Shown here: piece by piece, positions 119-9,711 of the stretch | How positions within the stretch are numbered: the first letter of the stretch is position 1 | How the letters are laid out: every line of letters begins with the position of its first letter | From: an uncultured archaeon | GTDB taxonomy: Archaea > Aenigmatarchaeota > Aenigmatarchaeia > CG10238-14 > SCSR01 | Assembly (NCBI GenBank): GCA_964590365.1 | Contig: CAZPVR010000001.1 | Location: forward strand, 1 to 40,579 | Length of the DNA: 40,579 nucleotides | Reading direction: 5' to 3' | Made by a program: the position numbers and the translations under genes | The notes under the pieces: generated by a model | Seen by the model: the letters and a program-made list of their open reading frames with translations, nothing else | Databases searched by the model: none | What the model was told of the DNA's origin: nothing

Positions 119-778
119 TTGTATTTTGTGAAATTGAATAGAATTATTTACGTTCAAAGGAAAAGTGAAGATAAATTTTTTGCGCCTATTCAAGTAATAG
201 ACTCTGAAAAATTTTTAGATAAAAAGGTATATAGGGTTGTAAGCAAGGAGAAAGTTTTCGAGTATGGAATATACAAAATGAACCCAAATGCTTGGTACGT
301 TTTGGGTAAAGATAAAGAAGCTCGCAAAATTTTTGGAATGTATTTAAACCGGCATCATCCATCCTTAAAAGACCTTTTCATAAGGGCTACTACAGAAGAT
401 CCACCACTATTCTTCTACCAAGAACATGAAATAAAAAGAATTCTTCTCGAGAAGTTCCATAATAACTTGGACTATGGAATCTTCGATGTAAAAGAGGGGA
501 AAATAGTAGTAAGGAGCATGCCCAACAAAGAAATTATTCATAAGCTGAAAAATATAATTGGGGAAATGAACGAGACTCCTGAACTGAGAATTTTTAGTAG
601 TAAAATTAAATCTATGATGGAAGAGACACAAAAACTTAAGAGAAAATTAAATATCCTTTCAGACCAGAAGAACAACCTCCTTTCTACTTCGCTTACAGAC
701 CCCGAACACTTACAAAAAATTGAGGAGCTAAAGATGATCGAAAAGAAGTTACTTTATTCCCCCTTATGGGTTGAGTGA
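119..778 (+). CDS. hypothetical protein (219 aa; TTG start as given by the ORF track, true start uncertain)
   Basis: Long ORF with non-repetitive composition and a Lys/Glu-rich helical C-terminus. No motif recognised. Confidence 0.5.
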   Translation: MYFVKLNRIIYVQRKSEDKFFAPIQVIDSEKFLDKKVYRVVSKEKVFEYGIYKMNPNAWYVLGKDKEARKIFGMYLNRHHPSLKDLFIRATTEDPPLFFYQEHEIKRILLEKFHNNLDYGIFDVKEGKIVVRSMPNKEIIHKLKNIIGEMNETPELRIFSSKIKSMMEETQKLKRKLNILSDQKNNLLSTSLTDPEHLQKIEELKMIEKKLLYSPLWVE

Positions 779-1118: not shown

Positions 1119-1952
1119 ATGAAAGATTTAGAAAATTATCTCTACAATACAGCAGTAGTAATTCATCATGGAGGGGAGGCTAAAAGACTTTCTACACTAA
1201 CAAAAGAAAAATTTCCAAAAGGGATGATAGAGGTTGGTATAAATTCCAGGCCTATATTTGATTGGGTCTTGGCAAAGTACGTTGATTCTGGAATAAGAAA
1301 GTTTTACATTACACTTTGGTTTGAGCCTGAGGCTGTGAAGAAAAGATGCAAAGAAATAGAAAATTATAGTGGCATAGAATTTAAATTCATAGAGGAGCCG
1401 AAAGACAGAAGGTTGGGAAGGGGAGGAGCGATAAAATTTGGAATAAAAGAAGGTATAATAAACGAAGATAACATCCTTTCAGTTAATGGTTCGGATATAA
1501 TAAATTATGACGTTAAAAAGTTCGTAAAATTTCATGTTGATGGATTGGATAAGTATTCAGTCACTATACTCGGTAGCCCTTATGACAAAAGCATATTTGG
1601 GAGGATCGAATGCGAGAAAAATGAGGTAAAAAGGTTTGTTGAAAAGCCTTTAATTAGGCTTAGAGAGGGAGAATACACAAATACAGGAATATTTTTGCTC
1701 GATAAAAAGGTGAAAGATCATTTGCTAAAAATAGAAAGTTATCCTTTTAACTTAGAAGATAATGTTTTCTTATCGGAGCTCCTAAAAAGAAATGAGGTGA
1801 GATGTTATTCTCCTGAAAAAGAAATAGTTCCAGGAGAAAATTGGGTTTACTTTAAGGACAAAAAAGATTATGATGGGTGGAAAAATTTGGATTTTGAAAA
1901 ATTCTTGGAAATTAAAAACATAAACAATTTATTGGGTCCGTATAAAACTTAA
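1119..1952 (+). CDS. sugar-phosphate nucleotidyltransferase (NTP_transferase family)
   Basis: The N-terminal VVIHHGGEAKRLSTLT...PKGMIEV resembles the GxGxRL...PK signature of RfbA/GlmU-type nucleotidyltransferases. The size (277 aa) fits. Confidence 0.7.
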   Translation: MKDLENYLYNTAVVIHHGGEAKRLSTLTKEKFPKGMIEVGINSRPIFDWVLAKYVDSGIRKFYITLWFEPEAVKKRCKEIENYSGIEFKFIEEPKDRRLGRGGAIKFGIKEGIINEDNILSVNGSDIINYDVKKFVKFHVDGLDKYSVTILGSPYDKSIFGRIECEKNEVKRFVEKPLIRLREGEYTNTGIFLLDKKVKDHLLKIESYPFNLEDNVFLSELLKRNEVRCYSPEKEIVPGENWVYFKDKKDYDGWKNLDFEKFLEIKNINNLLGPYKT

Positions 1953-1976
1953 ATTTTAAATACAAATTTTATTTGT

Positions 1977-2065
1977 GCCCCCATCGTCTAGTCCGGCCAA
2001 GGATACGAGCCTCTCGAGCTCGGGACGCGGGTTCAAAGGCTAAGCTGAAAATCCCGCTGGGGGCA
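1977..2065 (+). tRNA. tRNA-Glu (anticodon CTC) with a 14-nt intron in the T-loop (position 59/60)
   Basis: Acceptor GCCCCCA/TGGGGGC, D arm GTCT-AGTCCGGCCAA-GGAT, anticodon stem CGAGC/GCTCG with loop CT-CTC-GA, T stem GCGGG/CCCGC. The T-loop is 21 nt instead of 7. Confidence 0.8.
2038..2051 (+). other. non-canonical tRNA intron (BHB motif) in the tRNA-Glu T-loop
   Basis: The outer helix is the T stem. The central 4-bp helix is UUCA (2032..2035) with UGAA (2046..2049). The 3-nt bulges are AAG (2036..2038) and AAU (2050..2052). The inner element is GC-UAA-GC. Cutting after the second nucleotide of each bulge leaves the canonical T-loop UUCAAAU. Confidence 0.7.
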
Positions 2066-2076
2066 CAAGCTTCTTG

Positions 2077-2235
2077 TTAATGTCGAATGTATAATTCCTC
2101 AGCAATTCCGCATATCCTCGAATATTTTTCCATATCCTCTTTATTTCTAAGAACTCTTTTAACTACTGAACAATAAAGTTCTGTTGGGTTCTCAGGATAT
2201 GGAATGCATGCATTACACTTTTCGCATTCTGGCAT
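2077..2235 (-). CDS. small Cys-rich ORF (52 aa, below the ORF-track cutoff), last ORF of the Ubl cassette
   Basis: My translation is MPECEKCNACIPYPENPTELYCSVVKRVLRNKEDMEKYSRICGIAEELYIRH*. It has an ATG start, begins 15 nt after the stop of the 278-aa ORF, and has a CxxCxxC...C...C pattern. No Shine-Dalgarno sequence seen. Confidence 0.25.
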   Translation of the reverse strand: MPECEKCNACIPYPENPTELYCSVVKRVLRNKEDMEKYSRICGIAEELYIRH

Positions 2236-2250
2236 AAAATTATTTTGTAA

Positions 2251-3087
2251 CTAAAACTTATTTCTTTTTCTCATTTTCCTTAAATAACCTTCTATTTCAT
2301 TCGAAAAAAGGAAAAAGTTTAAAAGGAGTGGCCAGTCGTAAACAAATTCTTCAACAATTTCCCTCGAATTTAAAATTTGTGTAAAAAATTTTAAGTTGTG
2401 ATTTGTGGGATAATAGCTATAAATTTCGATGCTGGCAGTGGGAGGAGAAAAATTAGTTTTAGCAGTAGAATATAAAAGCTTTGCTGAGAAGAAGAGAGAA
2501 TAGTAAGAAAAAAACAATTCGGGCATGATTTTATAAGGTCCTACCAAATCTCTTTTTACTCCAAGCATTAAGTTTATTTCCGAATAATTCTTCCCTTCAG
2601 AACATTCTTTCGAAATTTTATTTACCAATTCTTCCATATCCTTTTCGTTCCAATTTAAAAATTTTTTGAAGTTGTAATCCAATTCATCGCTAGAAAAGGA
2701 TAATCTTAAAGATGAGAGCAAATCTCTTTTGAAAGATTCTTTAATTTGGCTCACATGGAATTTTATTGAACTATCTTTTAATTTTCCTACTAAAAAACCA
2801 AACCATTGACTTGAAGGTTTTATCTCCTCTTTAGGCTTTTTTTCCAAAATTTCTTCCAACGCACTTTCAAAAGATTTATCTTCTTTTAAGGAAGGTTTGA
2901 AGAGCGAAGAAATTTTAATTATATCATTCCCCAAATTTTCTGCATCCCTCTCTCTTTTTCTAACCTCAACGTAGAATTTTCTGCAGAATCCCTTTAAAAC
3001 CTCTCTCTTATCTTCCACAATTAAATTTTGTAAATTAATCTTTTCTAATTTTTTGGAAGAAAATCTTGTTTTTTGAATTCGATTCAT
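2251..3087 (-). CDS. hypothetical protein (278 aa), fifth gene of the Ubl/E2/JAB/E1 cassette
   Basis: ATG start overlapping the E1-like gene by 53 nt. Charged N-terminal half and an aromatic/hydrophobic C-terminal third (FFSYYSLFFSAKLLY...WPLLLNFFLF). No recognisable motif. Confidence 0.6.
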   Translation of the reverse strand: MNRIQKTRFSSKKLEKINLQNLIVEDKREVLKGFCRKFYVEVRKRERDAENLGNDIIKISSLFKPSLKEDKSFESALEEILEKKPKEEIKPSSQWFGFLVGKLKDSSIKFHVSQIKESFKRDLLSSLRLSFSSDELDYNFKKFLNWNEKDMEELVNKISKECSEGKNYSEINLMLGVKRDLVGPYKIMPELFFSYYSLFFSAKLLYSTAKTNFSPPTASIEIYSYYPTNHNLKFFTQILNSREIVEEFVYDWPLLLNFFLFSNEIEGYLRKMRKRNKF

Positions 3088-4375
3088 ACCTTATTATCCC
3101 ATCAAAAGGCTCGCCATATCTTTCATCCAGAATTTTTAAAGTTTCGCTTGCTGAAAGAGCAGATGCTATTATATTAGTTGTTACTATGCTCGGATTCCTT
3201 TCCCATGCGCAGGATGCTCTCTTTACTTTAATAAGCCTACTTATTCCTAAAACTTCGTCCAAATCAGAAGTTTTTCCTGGATAAGTTGTTACAACGCGTG
3301 CAGAATCAAACGTTACACCACTGCTCACATAAGGAATTTTAAATTCAAGCGATTTTTTCAGAATTTCATACCTACTTTCAAAGCTGTCAACCCCTTCAAC
3401 TATGACGTTAGCTTTTTTAATAACAGAATCGTCCAATTCCTCAAATCTTTTCGCATAAGCTTCTATTTTCAACTTCGGATTAATTTTCTCCAGCCTTTCC
3501 TTCCCAACTTCAACTTTTCTTCTTCCAACGCTGCAATAGAAAAGCCATTGTCTGTTTAAATTAGTTGGTTCTATAAAATCAGGGTCCACTATGCTCATTT
3601 CCTTAACTCCTAAACATGCATAAACAGGGCCTTCCCAGCATCCTCCTGTTCCGAATCCTGCCATTAGAATGTTGGAATTCCCCATCCTTGGTTCTTCTGG
3701 AGGATTTTCAAACAGCTGGAATTCAAATTCTTTTTTATCATAAGCCAAATCGTCCTTTAAAGGATTGAAGAATTTTCTTACTTCATCTGCAATTATTCCG
3801 GCAGCAAGCTCAGCAGTTACTATATTTTGTTTTTTATTCTCAAAGTAGCTGAAATCAGGATTGCTATTTGAATGAAAATTGAAAAATATTTTTATTTTAC
3901 TTTTATCACAGCTCGCGCTTATCAAAGGCTTTCTGTTTTTGTTCGAGAATTCTACAATTTTCTCCTTAATTTTCAAATCGTTTGTTGCTTCTACTATTAA
4001 ATCTTCTCCGCCCAAAAAAGTTTCCATTCCTTCATAAAGCCAGTTCACTCCTTTTATGCTTAAATTAGGGTTCATTCTTTTTCCTATTTTTTCCAAGGCT
4101 AAAACTTTTTCCTCTCCTATCCTTGCTTCAAGATAGAAAGGATATTTTACTTTTTCTTCGCCTCTAACCTTCCCATTTCCAAAAATCATTATCCAACCGT
4201 TCTCTCTTTCATGCCCAATTCCCAATCCAGCAAAAGCAGCGAGCAAGAATTGAGAAATATAATCGCACCCTATTAAAGAAATTCTTGCTTTCTTAAGATT
4301 TCTTTGTTTCCAGCCTTTTATTCTTTCCTGCCTATCATAGATGTTTGCCCCATATAGGCATTCTTTCCAGCTCAT
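3035..4375 (-). CDS. E1-like (ThiF/MoeB/UBA-family) activating enzyme with a degenerate N-terminal and an active C-terminal adenylation domain
   Basis: The N-terminal YDRQERIKGWKQRNLKKARISLIGCDYIS..LGIG is an E1-type start with a degenerate G-loop. The second domain has ILMAGFGTGGC (GxGxxG), VDPDFIEPTNLNRQ (DxDxxExxNLNRQ), VGRRKVEV, VEGVDSFESR and a candidate catalytic Cys in KRASCAWERNPSIVTTN. Confidence 0.8.
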   Translation of the reverse strand: MSWKECLYGANIYDRQERIKGWKQRNLKKARISLIGCDYISQFLLAAFAGLGIGHERENGWIMIFGNGKVRGEEKVKYPFYLEARIGEEKVLALEKIGKRMNPNLSIKGVNWLYEGMETFLGGEDLIVEATNDLKIKEKIVEFSNKNRKPLISASCDKSKIKIFFNFHSNSNPDFSYFENKKQNIVTAELAAGIIADEVRKFFNPLKDDLAYDKKEFEFQLFENPPEEPRMGNSNILMAGFGTGGCWEGPVYACLGVKEMSIVDPDFIEPTNLNRQWLFYCSVGRRKVEVGKERLEKINPKLKIEAYAKRFEELDDSVIKKANVIVEGVDSFESRYEILKKSLEFKIPYVSSGVTFDSARVVTTYPGKTSDLDEVLGISRLIKVKRASCAWERNPSIVTTNIIASALSASETLKILDERYGEPFDGIIRYESNSKNKIFFQKIRKD

Positions 4376-5207
4376 TCAACCTCCTTTGAATTCTTGAAGT
4401 GGAGTAAACAATCCTTTCTTCCATATTCCTTCTTAAATCTTCTTCATCAATTTCTTTGCAATCTTCCAAAATTTCCATCCTTACTCTTTTTGCGCTTATG
4501 GGATAAGGCCCGCATCCTGGGCAAACGGGCTGGTATATTACTTCGGAATACCATTCCTTTGCCCTATTCATAATCATATAATAAGCATAATTTATGACCA
4601 AATTCAGCTTTAAATCCATAAAAGCATCCTTAAGCTCATCTTCTAAAAACTCGAACCCAACCATTTTCAATATCCTTTTAATCCTATCAAACCTAGTTCT
4701 TCTTTCAGCAAACCTTAATTCAACTTTTTCTAAGTAGTTTGATGGGATTTTAAGGCTTAATTTTTCCCCATCCTTACTTACTCCCTCAACCTTTCCGCTA
4801 ATAAGGGTTATATAGCAAGATTTCTTCAAAGGGCTGGCGCTTAATATTCTTGCTCTCTCCTTAATTTCCTCGTCTTTTGAAGAAGAAAATGCAGGAAATA
4901 TTCCATGATAATGAAATTCGCCTACAGCATCAAAGCCAAAAAGCTCTAGCTCTTTAGCTTTTACGATCTCTGAAATTGGCCTTAAATCAACTGAAGAATA
5001 TGTTGTTGATTGAAAGGGAAGATAAACATCCGTTATTATATCCTCTTTTTCAGCTTTTGGTTTAATTAAGCAACATCCAAACTCCCTCCCTCCAAAAAAA
5101 TTCTCAGAAATTTCAGCATACTTCACAATTTTTTGTAAAGCACTCTTCCTCATTCTCACAACTTTAAACTCCTTATTAATTATTCTCTCCAATTCCTTCT
5201 CAAACAC
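4335..5207 (-). CDS. JAB/MPN (JAMM) metalloprotease with an extra C-terminal domain of about 150 aa
   Basis: Exact JAMM signature H99-Y-H101-GIFPAFS-S109-SK-D112 (HxHx7Sx2D; nt 4872..4913) with an upstream Glu in GGREFGCC. Overlaps the E2-like gene by 8 nt and the E1-like gene by 41 nt. Confidence 0.8.
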   Translation of the reverse strand: MFEKELERIINKEFKVVRMRKSALQKIVKYAEISENFFGGREFGCCLIKPKAEKEDIITDVYLPFQSTTYSSVDLRPISEIVKAKELELFGFDAVGEFHYHGIFPAFSSSKDEEIKERARILSASPLKKSCYITLISGKVEGVSKDGEKLSLKIPSNYLEKVELRFAERRTRFDRIKRILKMVGFEFLEDELKDAFMDLKLNLVINYAYYMIMNRAKEWYSEVIYQPVCPGCGPYPISAKRVRMEILEDCKEIDEEDLRRNMEERIVYSTSRIQRRLNELERMPIWGKHL

Positions 5208-6384
5208 TTAGCACAACCTTCCTCTTAACGTTAGTTATAGGAATCCTTTCTTTGCTTATTTCCTCAAAACTAAATTTTTTAAATTCTTCATGCGTAATAT
5301 AAGTTCCATGGCTTATAGTAGAAGTTACAAGACCTCTTACCCCATTAATCAGCCAAAGCGCAATGTGCAATCCTCTTACCTTTAAATCAGAATCGTTAGC
5401 AGGAATTTGGCCTGTTTTAATTAAATAATCAACGCCGAAATCCCCAAAACATATTTCTAAATTACCACTCTCCTCCCAAACATGAGGATGCTTATAGGGC
5501 TTCGACATCCTCGGCATGGTATAAGTTAAATCGCTTCTTACCCTTATCTCTATCCTCCCTTTTCCAAAAACATGATAAACTGGTTTTTTATCCTCTTCTG
5601 AGCAAAGCCCGCAGTACAAGGCATATTTTTCAGGAGTTTCTGCATATATTTTGTAAGATTTGGACGATTCTCTTATTATACCCCTTCTCAACTTTTCATG
5701 CATAGCATTAAACTCCTCTATAGCCTTACCCAAGGCCTCGAATTCTGATTTTGGAGATTTTCTAACTTCCTCCAAAACTTGAGAAAAGAAAAACCTTCTT
5801 ATAGCCTTATCATATTCCTTACTCATTTCCTCAAAAGAATTTTCAAATTCTAAGAAGCAATATTTAACACCGTCTATGCTTACATGAATCTGGTCTTCCC
5901 CTATACTACTTTCTTCAAGCTTATAAATTCTTGGCCCTCCTATGTTCAGAAGGGCAAAAACATCCAAATCATAATCTCTATAATCGAGCATCCTTTTCCA
6001 TATGCTTTTTTCTCCCTCTTTCTCTTTTTCTACCTTTCTCCTTTCTTCCCTGAAAGTTGGATATACACCAAAATTAGGTATTACATTATAAACTATGAAC
6101 CTTCTTAATTCCAACTCCTCTTCATCAAATCTACTTAAATTTCCTTTTCCCAAAATTTCCTTAATCTTTTCTTCCTTCCATGCTTTAATATGAGAGGAAT
6201 ACTTTGTTTCATACAGTTTTTCTAAATTGGAAATTGTATCTTGCTTCCTCAAATAATGTGTTTTCTTAAGCCGGATATAGCTTGAAGAAGGTTCTTTAGT
6301 TATTCCAAAAATATCCTCATAACTAACAACTAAGTTTACTCCCCTTCTGGCAAGTTCAAAGAGAAAGTTGGACGGTAATTCCAT
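5200..6384 (-). CDS. E2 (UBC-fold)-like conjugating-enzyme domain fused to an uncharacterised N-terminal region of about 240 aa
   Basis: The C-terminal region reads ...YTMPRMSKPYK-HPH-VWEESGNLEIC-FGDF. This matches the E2 HPN flap followed about 10 residues later by the catalytic Cys (H299-P-H301, C312; nt 5449..5490). It is preceded by beta-meander-like segments (YKIYAET, YALYCGL, VYHVFGKGRIEIRVR). Confidence 0.65.
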   Translation of the reverse strand: MELPSNFLFELARRGVNLVVSYEDIFGITKEPSSSYIRLKKTHYLRKQDTISNLEKLYETKYSSHIKAWKEEKIKEILGKGNLSRFDEEELELRRFIVYNVIPNFGVYPTFREERRKVEKEKEGEKSIWKRMLDYRDYDLDVFALLNIGGPRIYKLEESSIGEDQIHVSIDGVKYCFLEFENSFEEMSKEYDKAIRRFFFSQVLEEVRKSPKSEFEALGKAIEEFNAMHEKLRRGIIRESSKSYKIYAETPEKYALYCGLCSEEDKKPVYHVFGKGRIEIRVRSDLTYTMPRMSKPYKHPHVWEESGNLEICFGDFGVDYLIKTGQIPANDSDLKVRGLHIALWLINGVRGLVTSTISHGTYITHEEFKKFSFEEISKERIPITNVKRKVVLSV

Positions 6385-6816: not shown

Positions 6817-7911
6817 TCATATTTTCCAGTCCTTTAGCTTGTAATCGGAAAGAATAAAAACTTTTACAAAGGATGTTAAGTAGATTAATGTATTTAATGG
6901 AACGTAGAAGAAAAGGTAAACAAAAAATTCTTTAATATAGAATTCGTACTTAAGCTTCTTAGCTGCCGTGAAGAAAATGATTGAAAGAATAAAGAAAAGT
7001 ACAAAAATTAGAATTGTTTCCCAAATCAAGAGAGTTGGTAAATAAGAAAGGGTGAAATTTGCGCTCAAAAGGTTGGAAATAGAAGATTGGATGAATGTTT
7101 TTTTAACCATGTAGCCAAAAATTATGGAGGAGGAAAGAAGGAAGAAGAAAGCAGGGAGGATAAAAGGGAGAAAAGGGAAAAGCAGCTTAGGGGATTTTAG
7201 AAATGAGTGAACGATCTCTTTAAAATGCTTTTTTAACCAAAGTGCTACTCCAATCCCCCATCTCTCTCTTTGTCTAAACCAATGCTCCCAAGAAGTAGGA
7301 GCTTTATTCCATACCTCTATCTCTTTATCATACTTTAACTTTTTGTTCTCAATAAAAGCTCTTAAGCCAATTTCTAAATCCTCTGCTACAACCCTTCGAA
7401 ACATTCCTAGTTCATAAAAAACTTCTCGCTTTATACCGAAAGCTGGTCCATATACACCAAAACACTTTTTAAATTTCTCTGAGAAAAGCCATTCTACAAA
7501 ATTAAAGCTTATATAATCGTAATTAACTAGTTTAGAGATAAGGGATTCCCTGATTACTCTTTTCTTAATTTCAAGAATATCACAATCCTTTATGCTACTT
7601 GCTACTTTCTTTAAAAAACTTTTATATTTCCTTGGTATCTTTACATCAGAATCCAAAAAAAGTAGAATTTTTCCGCTCGATTTTTCCACTGCCTCATTAA
7701 GCGCTCTGGCCTTCCCCTTTCTTTTTTTATTGAGTATAAACTTTATTTTTCCCTTATATTTCTCAACCAAACCTAAGCTTTTCCTCGTTGGCTCATCTAT
7801 GATAACAAAGATTTCCTTATTCTTATAAGGATCTTCCAACAAGCTTTCGATTATATCATCAAGAAAATCGGATTCTCTGTAGACGGGTACGAAAACGCTA
7901 ATTTTTTCCAT
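6817..7911 (-). CDS. family 2 glycosyltransferase, processive type, with C-terminal transmembrane segments
   Basis: VFVPVYRE, IIDEPT, LFLDSDV (DxD), VVAEDLEIG and QRERW (QxxRW) motifs, followed by several hydrophobic helices. Confidence 0.85.
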   Translation of the reverse strand: MEKISVFVPVYRESDFLDDIIESLLEDPYKNKEIFVIIDEPTRKSLGLVEKYKGKIKFILNKKRKGKARALNEAVEKSSGKILLFLDSDVKIPRKYKSFLKKVASSIKDCDILEIKKRVIRESLISKLVNYDYISFNFVEWLFSEKFKKCFGVYGPAFGIKREVFYELGMFRRVVAEDLEIGLRAFIENKKLKYDKEIEVWNKAPTSWEHWFRQRERWGIGVALWLKKHFKEIVHSFLKSPKLLFPFLPFILPAFFFLLSSSIIFGYMVKKTFIQSSISNLLSANFTLSYLPTLLIWETILIFVLFFILSIIFFTAAKKLKYEFYIKEFFVYLFFYVPLNTLIYLTSFVKVFILSDYKLKDWKI

Positions 7912-7974
7912 AATTTTTATTTTTTCTCTATAGGATAAATTTTAAAACTTGATTGAGAACCTAACTTTAAGTTA

Positions 7975-8049
7975 TGGGGACGCTGGGATTTGAACCCAGG
8001 TCTGAGCCTCCCAAGGGCCCGATCCTAGACCAAGCTAGACGACGTCCCC
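7975..8049 (-). tRNA. tRNA-Pro (anticodon TGG)
   Basis: The reverse complement folds as acceptor GGGGACG/CGTCCCC, D arm GTCT..GGAT, anticodon stem GGGCC/GGCTC with loop CT-TGG-GA, T arm CTGGG-TTCAAAT-CCCAG, discriminator A. Confidence 0.85.
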
Positions 8050-8106
8050 GCTCAAACTTGATAATTAAATTTTTCCCTATAACCTAAAATTCTTGACGTT
8101 CGAGAA

Positions 8107-8192
8107 TGGGGCAGCTGGGATTTGAACCCAGGATTTCCACCGTTCCATGCTTCCCCAGGGTGGCGTCCTATTCCAAGCTAGACGACTGCCCC
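8107..8192 (-). tRNA. tRNA-Pro (anticodon GGG) with a short insertion of about 10 nt next to the anticodon (37/38 region)
   Basis: The reverse complement folds as acceptor GGGGCAG/CTGCCCC, D arm GTCT..GGAC, anticodon stem CCACC/GGTGG enclosing 17 nt (CTGGGG-AAGCATGGAA-C), T arm CTGGG-TTCAAAT-CCCAG. Only a relaxed BHB could be drawn by eye. Confidence 0.65.
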
Positions 8193-8222
8193 TTATATTT
8201 GATTATAACTTAAATTTTAATT

Positions 8223-9485
8223 ATGGTAATTGTTGGGAGGAGTAAAGAGGATTTAGAAGTTTTTGGGGAGGAATGTGCCGGCTACATAGGGAAGCATATC
8301 GTTGGAACAGGAGAAGAAGCACACCTAACAACAAAAGTTTTCCTCGATTTTCTCAAAACTCATGTAATTCTAATAACGGGAAAAAGGGGGTGTGGAAAAA
8401 GCTATGATGCAGGGGTTATAGCAGAGGAAATTGCTTTGCTTCCAGAAAAATACAGAAAAAATTTGGCAGTCGTTATAATAGATACTATGGGAATATTCTG
8501 GAGTTTAAAGAGACCAAACGAGCAGCAGAAAAATTTTTTAAAAGAATGGGGCTTAGAACCTAGGGGTCTTGATAATGTTAAAGTTTTTGTTCCATTTTCG
8601 CAGCTTGAAGAATTTAAAAATTCTGGCATTCCTGTTGATGAAGGTTTTTCAATTCTGCCCTATGAATTTTCAGCCGAAGAATGGAGGCTTGCCTTCAACC
8701 TAAAAAGGACAGAACCTGCAGGAATTTCTCTCGAGAAAGTGTTGAATCAACTTCTTGAATCAGGTCAGAAATTTTCCATAGATGATATAATAACTAAAAT
8801 CAGGGATGATGAAGAGATTTCGAAGGAAGTGAAAAGTGCTTTGGAGAATATGCTGAGTGTTGCAAAGCAGTGGGGAGTTTTTGGGGAAAAAGGAATTAAT
8901 ATAGATGATTTGGTCAAACCCGGGCAAATTTCTGTAATAGATGTTTCCCGCTTAAGGGCAATGGAAGCTTGGAGCGTAAGGAATTTTATAGTAGCTATAA
9001 TAGCGAGAAAGGTTTATGAATATAGAGTAATAGCGAGAAAGGAAGAAGAAATAGCGAGAATTGAAGGAAGGGAAATGGAAAAAAAGTATCCAATGGTATG
9101 GTTAATAGTTGATGAAGCTCATAATTTTTGCCCATCGGATTTTGAAACAATTTCTTCTCAGCCTTTCTTAACCATAGCAAAACAAGGAAGGGAGCCTGGA
9201 GTAAGCTTAGTTGTTATAACTCAAATGCCGAACAAAATTCATCAGGATATTTTAAGCCAATGCGATTTGATAATTTCACACCGTTTAACTTCCAAGGACG
9301 ATTTACAAGCTTTGCATGCAGTTTATCAAACTTATATGCAGGAGGAAATAGAGAAGATGATAAATAAGCTTCCTAGATGGCCTGGAGCTGCTTTAATTCT
9401 TGATGATAACTTAGAAAAGGCATTTACAGTAGCTATAAGGCCGAGGCTAAGCCATCATGCAGGTGGGACCGCAATTCTGATTTAA
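8223..9485 (+). CDS. HerA/FtsK-superfamily P-loop ATPase (DUF87-like)
   Basis: Walker A ITGKRGCGKSY and Walker B VWLIVDEAHNF. SLVVITQMP and the C-terminal layout are typical of archaeal HerA-like ATPases. Confidence 0.7.
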   Translation: MVIVGRSKEDLEVFGEECAGYIGKHIVGTGEEAHLTTKVFLDFLKTHVILITGKRGCGKSYDAGVIAEEIALLPEKYRKNLAVVIIDTMGIFWSLKRPNEQQKNFLKEWGLEPRGLDNVKVFVPFSQLEEFKNSGIPVDEGFSILPYEFSAEEWRLAFNLKRTEPAGISLEKVLNQLLESGQKFSIDDIITKIRDDEEISKEVKSALENMLSVAKQWGVFGEKGINIDDLVKPGQISVIDVSRLRAMEAWSVRNFIVAIIARKVYEYRVIARKEEEIARIEGREMEKKYPMVWLIVDEAHNFCPSDFETISSQPFLTIAKQGREPGVSLVVITQMPNKIHQDILSQCDLIISHRLTSKDDLQALHAVYQTYMQEEIEKMINKLPRWPGAALILDDNLEKAFTVAIRPRLSHHAGGTAILI

Positions 9486-9507: not shown

Positions 9508-9711
9508 ATGGAAATAGAACTTATAAAGCAGTTGTTAATAATTTTTGGTGTGATAGCTCCTGTCATAATTGCTGTTTACATGCTAATCTTCCTCCTCAGA
9601 AAAAGATGTCCTTTATGCGGAGCAAAGATGAAATTTCTGTACAGAGGGAATAGCGTTGTTGGTTATTATTGTCCAAAGTGTAAGCATTATGAAGTAAAAG
9701 TTATAGAGTAA
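9508..9711 (+). CDS. small membrane-anchored zinc-ribbon protein
   Basis: One N-terminal hydrophobic helix (LLIIFGVIAPVIIAVYMLIFLL), then CPLC...x17...CPKC. Starts 22 nt after the HerA-like gene. Confidence 0.5.
   Translation: MEIELIKQLLIIFGVIAPVIIAVYMLIFLLRKRCPLCGAKMKFLYRGNSVVGYYCPKCKHYEVKVIE

Follow-up and report, generated by a model that had tools for sequence, protein, structure and literature searches.

In the window analyzed here, a 40,579-nucleotide (nt) stretch of DNA covering positions 1 to 40,579 of contig CAZPVR010000001.1 from an uncultured archaeon of the phylum Aenigmatarchaeota (assembly GCA_964590365.1; genome of 0.58 Mb, 92.9% complete), the open reading frame (ORF) at 3035-4375 encodes an E1 in which two homologous adenylation domains of the ThiF/MoeB type lie in one chain, the N-terminal one inactive (inactive adenylation domain, IAD) and the C-terminal one active (active adenylation domain, AAD). 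Its gene belongs to a cassette that also encodes a ubiquitin-like modifier (Ubl), an E2-like protein and a JAMM/JAB metalloprotease, arranged on one strand in the order Ubl-E2-JAB-E1 with overlaps or gaps of a few bases. We consider it very likely that the protein is the E1 of a ubiquitin-like conjugation cascade and works as an intramolecular pseudo-dimer.

Two adenylation domains in one chain

The Pfam ThiF model (cutoff, 28.1 bits) matched the whole E1 in two stretches (159.7 bits, E = 9e-47). When the window's genome was searched in six frames, each half exceeded the cutoff by itself, the C-terminal half with 120.2 bits (nt 3044-3691) and the N-terminal half with 42.8 bits (nt 3875-4327). 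Direct BLAST comparison of one half with the other gave a weak match (E = 0.019), while profiles built for the family from residues 8-212 and from residues 225-446 aligned over 184 columns with 99.9% probability (hhalign, E = 3.6e-33). A profile built from just the N-terminal half matched E. coli MoeB (E = 1.2e-27), ThiF and Uba4, as well as the inactive domains of UBA6 (residues 11-155) and UBA7, SAE1 and NAE1. Among solved structures, MoeB (E = 5.7e-31), Uba1, SAE2 and UBA3 were matched by the whole-family profile at the AAD (E = 1e-26 to 1e-31). An AlphaFold2 model built from a 90-sequence alignment was confident (mean predicted local distance difference test [pLDDT], 94.3; predicted template modeling score [pTM], 0.94), and the two halves are predicted to pack as a pseudo-dimer within the chain. 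The top 50 Foldseek matches of this model in the PDB were all single-chain eukaryotic E1s (Uba1, UBA6 and UBA7; E ~1e-23; TM-scores of 0.65-0.72, normalized to the query), and the alignments run over ~580 columns, so that both halves are covered. Chains of the type of BilD, the E1 of bacterial Bil operons, were absent among the 50 Foldseek and 60 PDB sequence matches listed for the E1.

An initial annotation, made from the letters of the window, had proposed an inactive and an active E1 domain in one chain. The ThiF scores of the single halves, the half-against-half profiles and the predicted structure, which superposes on Uba1, UBA6 and UBA7 across both halves, bear this out. They leave no room for an unrelated fold in the N-terminal half, given its ThiF score, its matches to MoeB and to eukaryotic inactive domains, and the model. 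All motifs quoted for the ORF could be located in its translation, namely YDRQERIKGW (13-22), ARISLIG (30-36) and GCDYIS (36-41) in the N-terminal half and GFGTGG (240-245), VDPDFIEPTNLNRQ (263-276), RRK (285-287), VDSFESR (329-335) and C389 in the C-terminal half. Support for the start codon comes from homologues that align at their N-termini from residue 1 onward.

Asymmetry of the two domains

Residue counts were taken on a 90-member family alignment, and the residues of the two halves were paired by profile alignment, which places G36-C-D-Y-I-S41 opposite G240-F-G-T-G-G245 (Table 1). The catalytic set of the E1 superfamily is complete in the C-terminal half (G240xG242xxG245, D264, N272-L-N-R275-Q276, K287, D330 and R335) and incomplete in the N-terminal half. 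With the exception of N274 (76/90), the AAD residues of this set are kept in 85 to 90 of the 90 family members, and the census thereby confirms that the C-terminal half carries all adenylation signatures, as first annotated. The other half of that proposal, a degenerate N-terminal nucleotide loop and a missing NLNRQ block, also held: the loop has lost two of its three glycines, and the NLNRQ region is gapped or unconserved across the whole family. As judged from these alignments, only the C-terminal domain keeps the residues for binding ATP and Mg and for adenylation.

Table 1. Catalytic residues of the active domain and their counterparts in the inactive domain of the E1
Function	Active domain	Family members	Inactive domain
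Gly loop, G1	G240	90/90	G36
Gly loop, G2	G242	90/90	D38
Gly loop, G3	G245	85/90	S41
Ribose Asp	D264	90/90	G66
ATP-phosphate Arg	R275	89/90	K77
Gln	Q276	90/90	Y78
Lys	K287	90/90	K90
Mg Asp	D330	90/90	N132 (Asn in 78/90)

The degree of decay differs among relatives. In many DPANN members, the N-terminal loop is less eroded (GSGxLA), and the ribose Asp is present in 44/90, while the inactive half has lost the catalytic Arg and Gln and the Mg Asp across the family as a whole; loss as complete as in the window's protein is specific to its clade. The milder erosion in these relatives, together with a domain that scores above the Pfam ThiF threshold and is far less eroded than that of BilD, could be taken to mean that the N-terminal domain still takes up a nucleotide or another Ubl and serves in regulation or as a second site of loading. 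We consider this highly improbable, as the family lacks the NLNRQ block throughout and, in the window's protein, the loop reads GCDYIS, the ribose Asp is replaced by Gly and the Mg Asp by Asn. With two loop glycines, ribose Asp, NLNRQ and Mg Asp gone, a functional ATP site is ruled out for the N-terminal half of this protein.

The inactive half has nonetheless retained one motif, R-Y-D-R15-Q16-x-R-I-x-G-W-x-Q24 (R15 in 87/90, Q16 in 78/90 and Q24 in 85/90), and no RQ motif was found in the lead-in to the active half in the family alignment. In MoeB homodimers, NAE1-UBA3, SAE1-SAE2 and Uba1, an Arg of the partner subunit crosses the interface and completes the ATP site. By analogy, the RYDRQ motif of the inactive half may be read as such an arginine finger. 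Because the dead half keeps the Arg motif and the live half does without it, the asymmetry is complementary, with only what the live half needs having been kept in the dead one.

Cys389 and the crossover loop

The crossover loop is about 24 residues long in the window's E1 and 20-36 residues long in all 90 family members, and it carries Cys389, which is invariant (90/90). In a profile alignment, Cys389 coincides with the crossover-loop Cys of E. coli MoeB, 12 residues past the MoeB CxxC; this alignment and the invariance of the residue support its original placement in the crossover-loop region. Residues 388-391 are the sole stretch of the E1 model with a pLDDT of <50, and Cys389 is a candidate catalytic Cys on a short, flexible loop, as found in MoeB, ThiF, UBA5 and ATG7. 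None of the 90 family members has a CYS-domain insertion that could correspond to the ~80-residue CYS domain of BilD or to the eukaryotic SCCH. Of two zinc-binding CxxC/CxC pairs, the first is kept in 63/90 and the second in 61/90. Both were lost in the window's clade, where GKTSDLDEV replaces GKTSCLDC (D-L-D-E for CxxC) and the C-terminal pair is absent, and both were likewise lost in the Desulfobacterota clade.

Partners encoded in the cassette

The Ubl, E2-like and JAMM proteins (Table 2) had no match in Pfam or NCBIfam, the Prok-E2 and Prok-JAB models included, which leaves the whole cascade effectively unannotated in public genomes. Most members of the Ubl family carry a conserved (Q/E)(E/Q)GG followed by 1-13 variable residues. 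The model of the window's Ubl (pLDDT, 85) has the order beta-beta-alpha-beta-beta-beta, and its top 50 Foldseek matches all carry a ubiquitin-like beta-grasp domain (E = 5e-3 to 0.08), among them GABARAP/LC3, FAT10, the TBCB Ubl and Ras-binding domains. One locus from Latescibacteria (L005; 1948-2253 and 2274-4956) is a bacterial version with three genes, in which the Ubl is tailless and stops exactly at ...HAGG and the E2-like and E1 genes have no JAB gene between them. This single case (n = 1) fits tail removal as the first job of the JAB protein.

Near the C-terminus of the E2-like protein, Y-x-H-P-F/H-...-I-C-x-G shows the classical E2 arrangement of HPN...C. In columns aligned by hidden Markov model (HMM), C312 was found in 69/70, H299 in 58/70 and P300 in 61/70 family members. 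Some cassettes of Woesearchaeota (L021, L018 and L036) encode two to three paralogous E2-like proteins of ~450-570 amino acids beside a single E1 (L021 at 1612-3294, 3291-4991 and 7466-9133; L018 at 2012-3631 and 3628-4998), a layout of one E1 and several E2s that recalls eukaryotic cascades.

The JAMM motif is directly legible in the translation of the 290-residue protein, which also had a weak PADLOC JAB match (E = 0.02), and HxHx7-10[ST]xxD is kept in 64/67 members of its family. In metagenome-assembled genomes (MAGs) labeled Methanosarcinales or Euryarchaeota, the cassette JAMM protein measures 944-982 amino acids, three times the size of the window's (L004/L025 at 2508-5342, L026 at 3038-5986 and L028 at 3131-5983), and carries long, acidic, low-complexity extensions.

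Downstream of the E1 gene, a 278-residue protein (searched in Pfam, NCBIfam and PADLOC) and a 52-residue Cys-rich ORF had no library match; they are candidate adaptors, E3-like factors or targets. Homologues of the 278-residue protein directly follow the E1 gene only in L001/L011/L012/L013, L007 (two copies) and L004/L025; its conservation is limited to cassettes of the Aenigmatarchaeota type and a few others.

Distribution and phylogeny

In a representative library, E1 homologues formed 54 clusters at E <1e-30 and 647 at E <1e-10, and nearly all of the top 150 clusters aligned over E1 residues ~10-440. In species-level genomes, 311 related loci were confirmed; both E1 halves were spanned in 76 of the best 80. 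The hosts are Aenigmatarchaeota, Woese-, Pace- and Nanoarchaeota, MAGs labeled Methanosarcinales, Chloroflexota, many Desulfobacterota and one member of Patescibacteria. According to iterated HMMs over 80 related loci, the Ubl, E2-like and JAMM families travel with the E1. The core of four genes is found again in DPANN archaea, Desulfobacterota and Chloroflexota; most archaeal loci are ordered Ubl-E2-JAB-E1 and those of Desulfobacterales E1-Ubl-E2...JAB. A FastTree phylogeny (a fast tree with long branches, to be read with caution) placed the window's E1 in a tight clade of Aenigmatarchaeota within the DPANN part and the Desulfobacterota E1s in a separate clade. For DPANN and Desulfobacterota, we came across no account of this operon family in the literature searched, from which subscription journals were mostly out of reach.

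Within the phylum, a full-length two-domain E1 was present in 6 of 301 sampled genomes, plus one partial match, while the remaining matches were single-domain ThiF proteins. Five of the six genomes of the window's genus (the window's own included) encode the two-domain E1, as does one other genome. The E1 is thus patchily distributed, as accessory or defense systems are, although this likeness is a correlation only.

Comparison with known E1 systems

Bil operons show the order Ubl-E2-JAB-E1, a fused inactive/active E1 and a Ubl tail trimmed by JAB (bioRxiv 10.1101/2023.09.26.559546). That the cassette is a true Bil member (BilABCD) and its E1 a divergent BilD would account for the shared gene order, the same E1 architecture, a Ubl in need of tail removal and the patchy distribution (6 full-length and one partial match in 301 genomes of the phylum). 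Compared with type II Bil of Ensifer aridi (Chambers et al.), gene order and the Ubl tail after a conserved Gly are matched here, and both E1s do without FCCH or UFD domains. However, hhalign matched E. aridi BilD to the E1 in the active core only, along 138 columns (probability, 88%), and its ~80-residue helical CYS domain in the crossover loop has no counterpart, the place being taken by the short loop bearing Cys389. BilD also binds zinc through two Cys pairs, both of which the window's clade has lost. The E2-like family is unrelated by sequence to BilB (hhalign probability, 0.3%) and ~200 residues longer, and Pfam Prok-E2 and Prok-JAB found no match in the cassette. Since BilD aligned over the C-terminal core only and the CYS insertion is missing, the 'Bil-type' label of the initial annotation stands as a description of architecture and falls as a statement of family membership. 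For type I Bil, as which we take the 6d operon of Iyer et al. 2006, the E2 is described without the classical His and with a conserved His after the Cys, and the JAB-N with Arg and Trp (PMC1779556). The E2-like proteins here keep His-Pro before the Cys (58/70 and 61/70, respectively), a difference from type I that is drawn from the published description only. We therefore regard membership in Bil as unlikely; from sequence, the cassette would work like Bil, is not a detectable member of type II Bil and appears to be a distinct family.

The same pseudo-dimer, with a YxRQ motif on its inactive side, occurs in eukaryotic Uba1, UBA6 and UBA7 and in NAE1-UBA3 and SAE1-SAE2, but the window's E1 is not half as large as the eukaryotic E1s and lacks FCCH, SCCH/CYS and ubiquitin-fold domains. 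Such a protein might represent a minimal surviving stage in the evolution of canonical E1s, in which two MoeB-like protomers had already been fused and had diverged into a dead half, donor of the arginine finger, and a live half before a CYS or ubiquitin-fold domain was acquired. We hold this to be quite doubtful. If it were true, and rooted phylogenies made the family and its E2-like partner the sister groups of the E1s and E2s of eukaryotes and Asgard archaea, the asymmetry of inactive and active domains and the logic of precursor processing would date to widespread archaeal operons, and neither would have to be traced to bacterial Bil systems or to eukaryogenesis.

Among archaea, Caldiarchaeum subterraneum and Asgard lineages have Ub-E1-E2-RING-Rpn11 operons with a recognizable ubiquitin, an E2 of the UBC family and a RING E3 (PMC3082918, PMC5654768). 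Common to these operons and the cassette are genes for a modifier, for E1-like and E2-like proteins (the latter with an HPN-type loop) and for a JAMM protease; they differ in that the partners here have no Pfam match, a RING was not found and the E1 is a fused pair (the E1s having been compared by description only). Two bacterial pathways were also considered and rejected. Bub (6E/DUF6527) uses a homodimeric peptidase-E1 fusion without a catalytic Cys, a Ser E2 and the DUF6527 serine protease (bioRxiv 10.1101/2024.11.21.623953). It is ruled out by the invariant E1 Cys, by C312 of the E2-like protein (69/70) and by the separate JAMM protease. In Cap2 of type II CBASS, an E2 domain is fused to the N-terminus of a single, homodimerizing E1 domain. 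Cap2 is ruled out in turn, as the E1-E2 models of PADLOC match the E1 core only (best E, 1e-13) and the N-terminal half has the E1 fold.

A sulfur carrier as the substrate

MoeB, ThiF and archaeal UbaA work as symmetric homodimers, have two active sites and act without an E2 in sulfur transfer (UbaA in SAMPylation as well). They share with the window's E1 a short crossover loop whose Cys occupies the same position; here, by contrast, the protomers are fused, one of them is dead, and E2-like and JAMM proteins are encoded next to the E1. The E1 might therefore be a sulfur-carrier activator of the MoeB/ThiF/UbaA type whose fused dead domain merely replaces the second subunit of the homodimer, and its product would then be a beta-grasp thiocarboxylate for cofactor synthesis or tRNA thiolation and not a protein conjugate. 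Among solved structures, MoeB and ThiF are closest by sequence to both halves, and C389 corresponds in position to the crossover Cys of MoeB. The genome further encodes an 88-residue protein of the ThiS/MoaD family that ends in ...IISGG (Pfam ThiS, 36.5 bits), and the 92.9%-complete assembly yielded no further E1 of the ThiF family, single-domain UbaA/MoeB-type E1s included.

This alternative is nevertheless improbable. No rhodanese domain is fused to the E1 or encoded adjacent to it, and MoaE was not found in the genome. In ~80 loci, the E1 gene is fixed beside genes for a Cys-bearing E2-like protein and a JAMM protein, neither of which sulfur-carrier chemistry needs. Of the other five genomes in the genus, four bear the E1 and none yielded the ThiS-like gene, so that the ThiS-like protein and the E1 are not co-inherited and the former is probably not the main substrate of the latter. 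It is possible that the two-domain E1 serves the ThiS-like protein as well; this protein may be either an orphan resembling the small archaeal modifier proteins (SAMP-like), a second client of the E1, or the client of an E1 of its own encoded in the unassembled part of the genome.

Proposed mechanism

In the conjugation cascade that we favor, the JAMM protease would remove the EMR tail and expose Gly127 of the Ubl, which the active domain would then adenylate. By analogy with the E1s of known structure, Arg15 of the dead domain may extend over the interface of the pseudo-dimer and so complete the ATP site. Cys389 would accept the Ubl as a thioester and hand it over to Cys312 of the E2-like protein, which would conjugate it to targets; the JAMM protease may additionally reverse the modification. 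That the E1 gene is the sole ThiF-family gene above threshold in a 0.58-Mb genome in which MoaE was not found speaks for this cascade, and what supports a possible thioester and its transfer to the E2-like protein is the Cys kept in all 90 members and the E2-like gene conserved beside that of the E1. Proteasome alpha and beta subunits are also present in the window's genome, which makes a role of the cassette in degradation possible.

Several observations weigh on the other side. Adenylation, thioester formation, E2 transfer and tail removal have all been inferred, and the active half resembles MoeB and ThiF, which act in sulfur transfer, about as closely as it does ubiquitin E1s. The genome holds a ThiS-family protein ending in GG, and no other E1 was found to serve it. 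The fold matches of the Ubl are modest (E = 5e-3 or worse; TM-score, ~0.4), and the window's Ubl has AG before the tail where the family has GG. The profile of the E2-like family had no PDB sequence match even at E = 10, and none to BilB, so that the assignment as E2-like draws on the motif and the gene context.

Other features of the window

The cassette is bracketed by a tRNA-Arg gene, two tRNA-Pro genes and a gene for a GT2 glycosyltransferase (Table 2). Further along lies a HerA/DUF87-type ATPase gene, near which no NurA-like gene was seen, followed by a gene for a small protein.

Table 2. Positions of the E1 gene, its domains, the cassette genes and other features (positions refer to the window unless another contig is given)
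Feature	Position	Strand	Remarks
E1 gene, 446 amino acids	3035..4375	minus	ATG-started ORF; N-terminal inactive and C-terminal active adenylation domain
IAD, residues ~8-212	3740..4354	minus	Pfam ThiF, hhalign, residue census
AAD, residues ~225-446	3038..3703	minus	Pfam ThiF, residue census
Short crossover loop, residues ~372-396	3188..3262	minus	Candidate catalytic Cys389 (codon 3209-3211)
Ubl precursor, 130 amino acids	6388..6780	minus	Ends in APAG plus EMR tail
E2-like protein, 394 amino acids	5200..6384	minus	C-terminal Y297-x-H299-P300-...-I-C312-x-G314
JAMM/JAB metalloprotease, 290 amino acids	4335..5207	minus	E42; H99-x-H101-x7-S109-xx-D112
278-amino-acid protein	2251..3087	minus	No library match; start overlaps E1 stop by 53 nt
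52-amino-acid ORF	2077-2235	minus	Cys-rich
tRNA-Arg(TCG)	1012-1086	plus	
tRNA-Pro (TGG, GGG), two genes	7975-8049, 8107-8192	minus	
GT2 glycosyltransferase gene	6817-7911		
HerA/DUF87-type ATPase	8223-9485	plus	Pfam DUF87, E 3e-12
67-amino-acid protein	9508-9711	plus	Hydrophobic N-terminal stretch, two CxxC pairs
ThiS-like gene	161-427		Contig C54 of the window's genome (2.6 kb), locus L091

Implications

Until 2023, a fused pair of inactive and active adenylation domains was regarded as a hallmark of eukaryotic E1s. BilD extended this architecture to bacteria (bioRxiv 10.1101/2023.09.26.559546), and the family described here extends it to ultra-small DPANN archaea and several bacterial phyla, in the simplest form so far, with two adenylation domains and a loop Cys in ~450 residues. 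The cassette takes up ~4.7 kb of a 0.58-Mb genome, which suggests that it matters to the cell, be it in defense or in protein turnover. As the dead half is still recognizably ThiF-like, the E1 offers a tractable model for asking why one active site was sacrificed, what the dead half contributes (probably an arginine finger and a scaffold) and how a Cys on a short loop may serve an E2.

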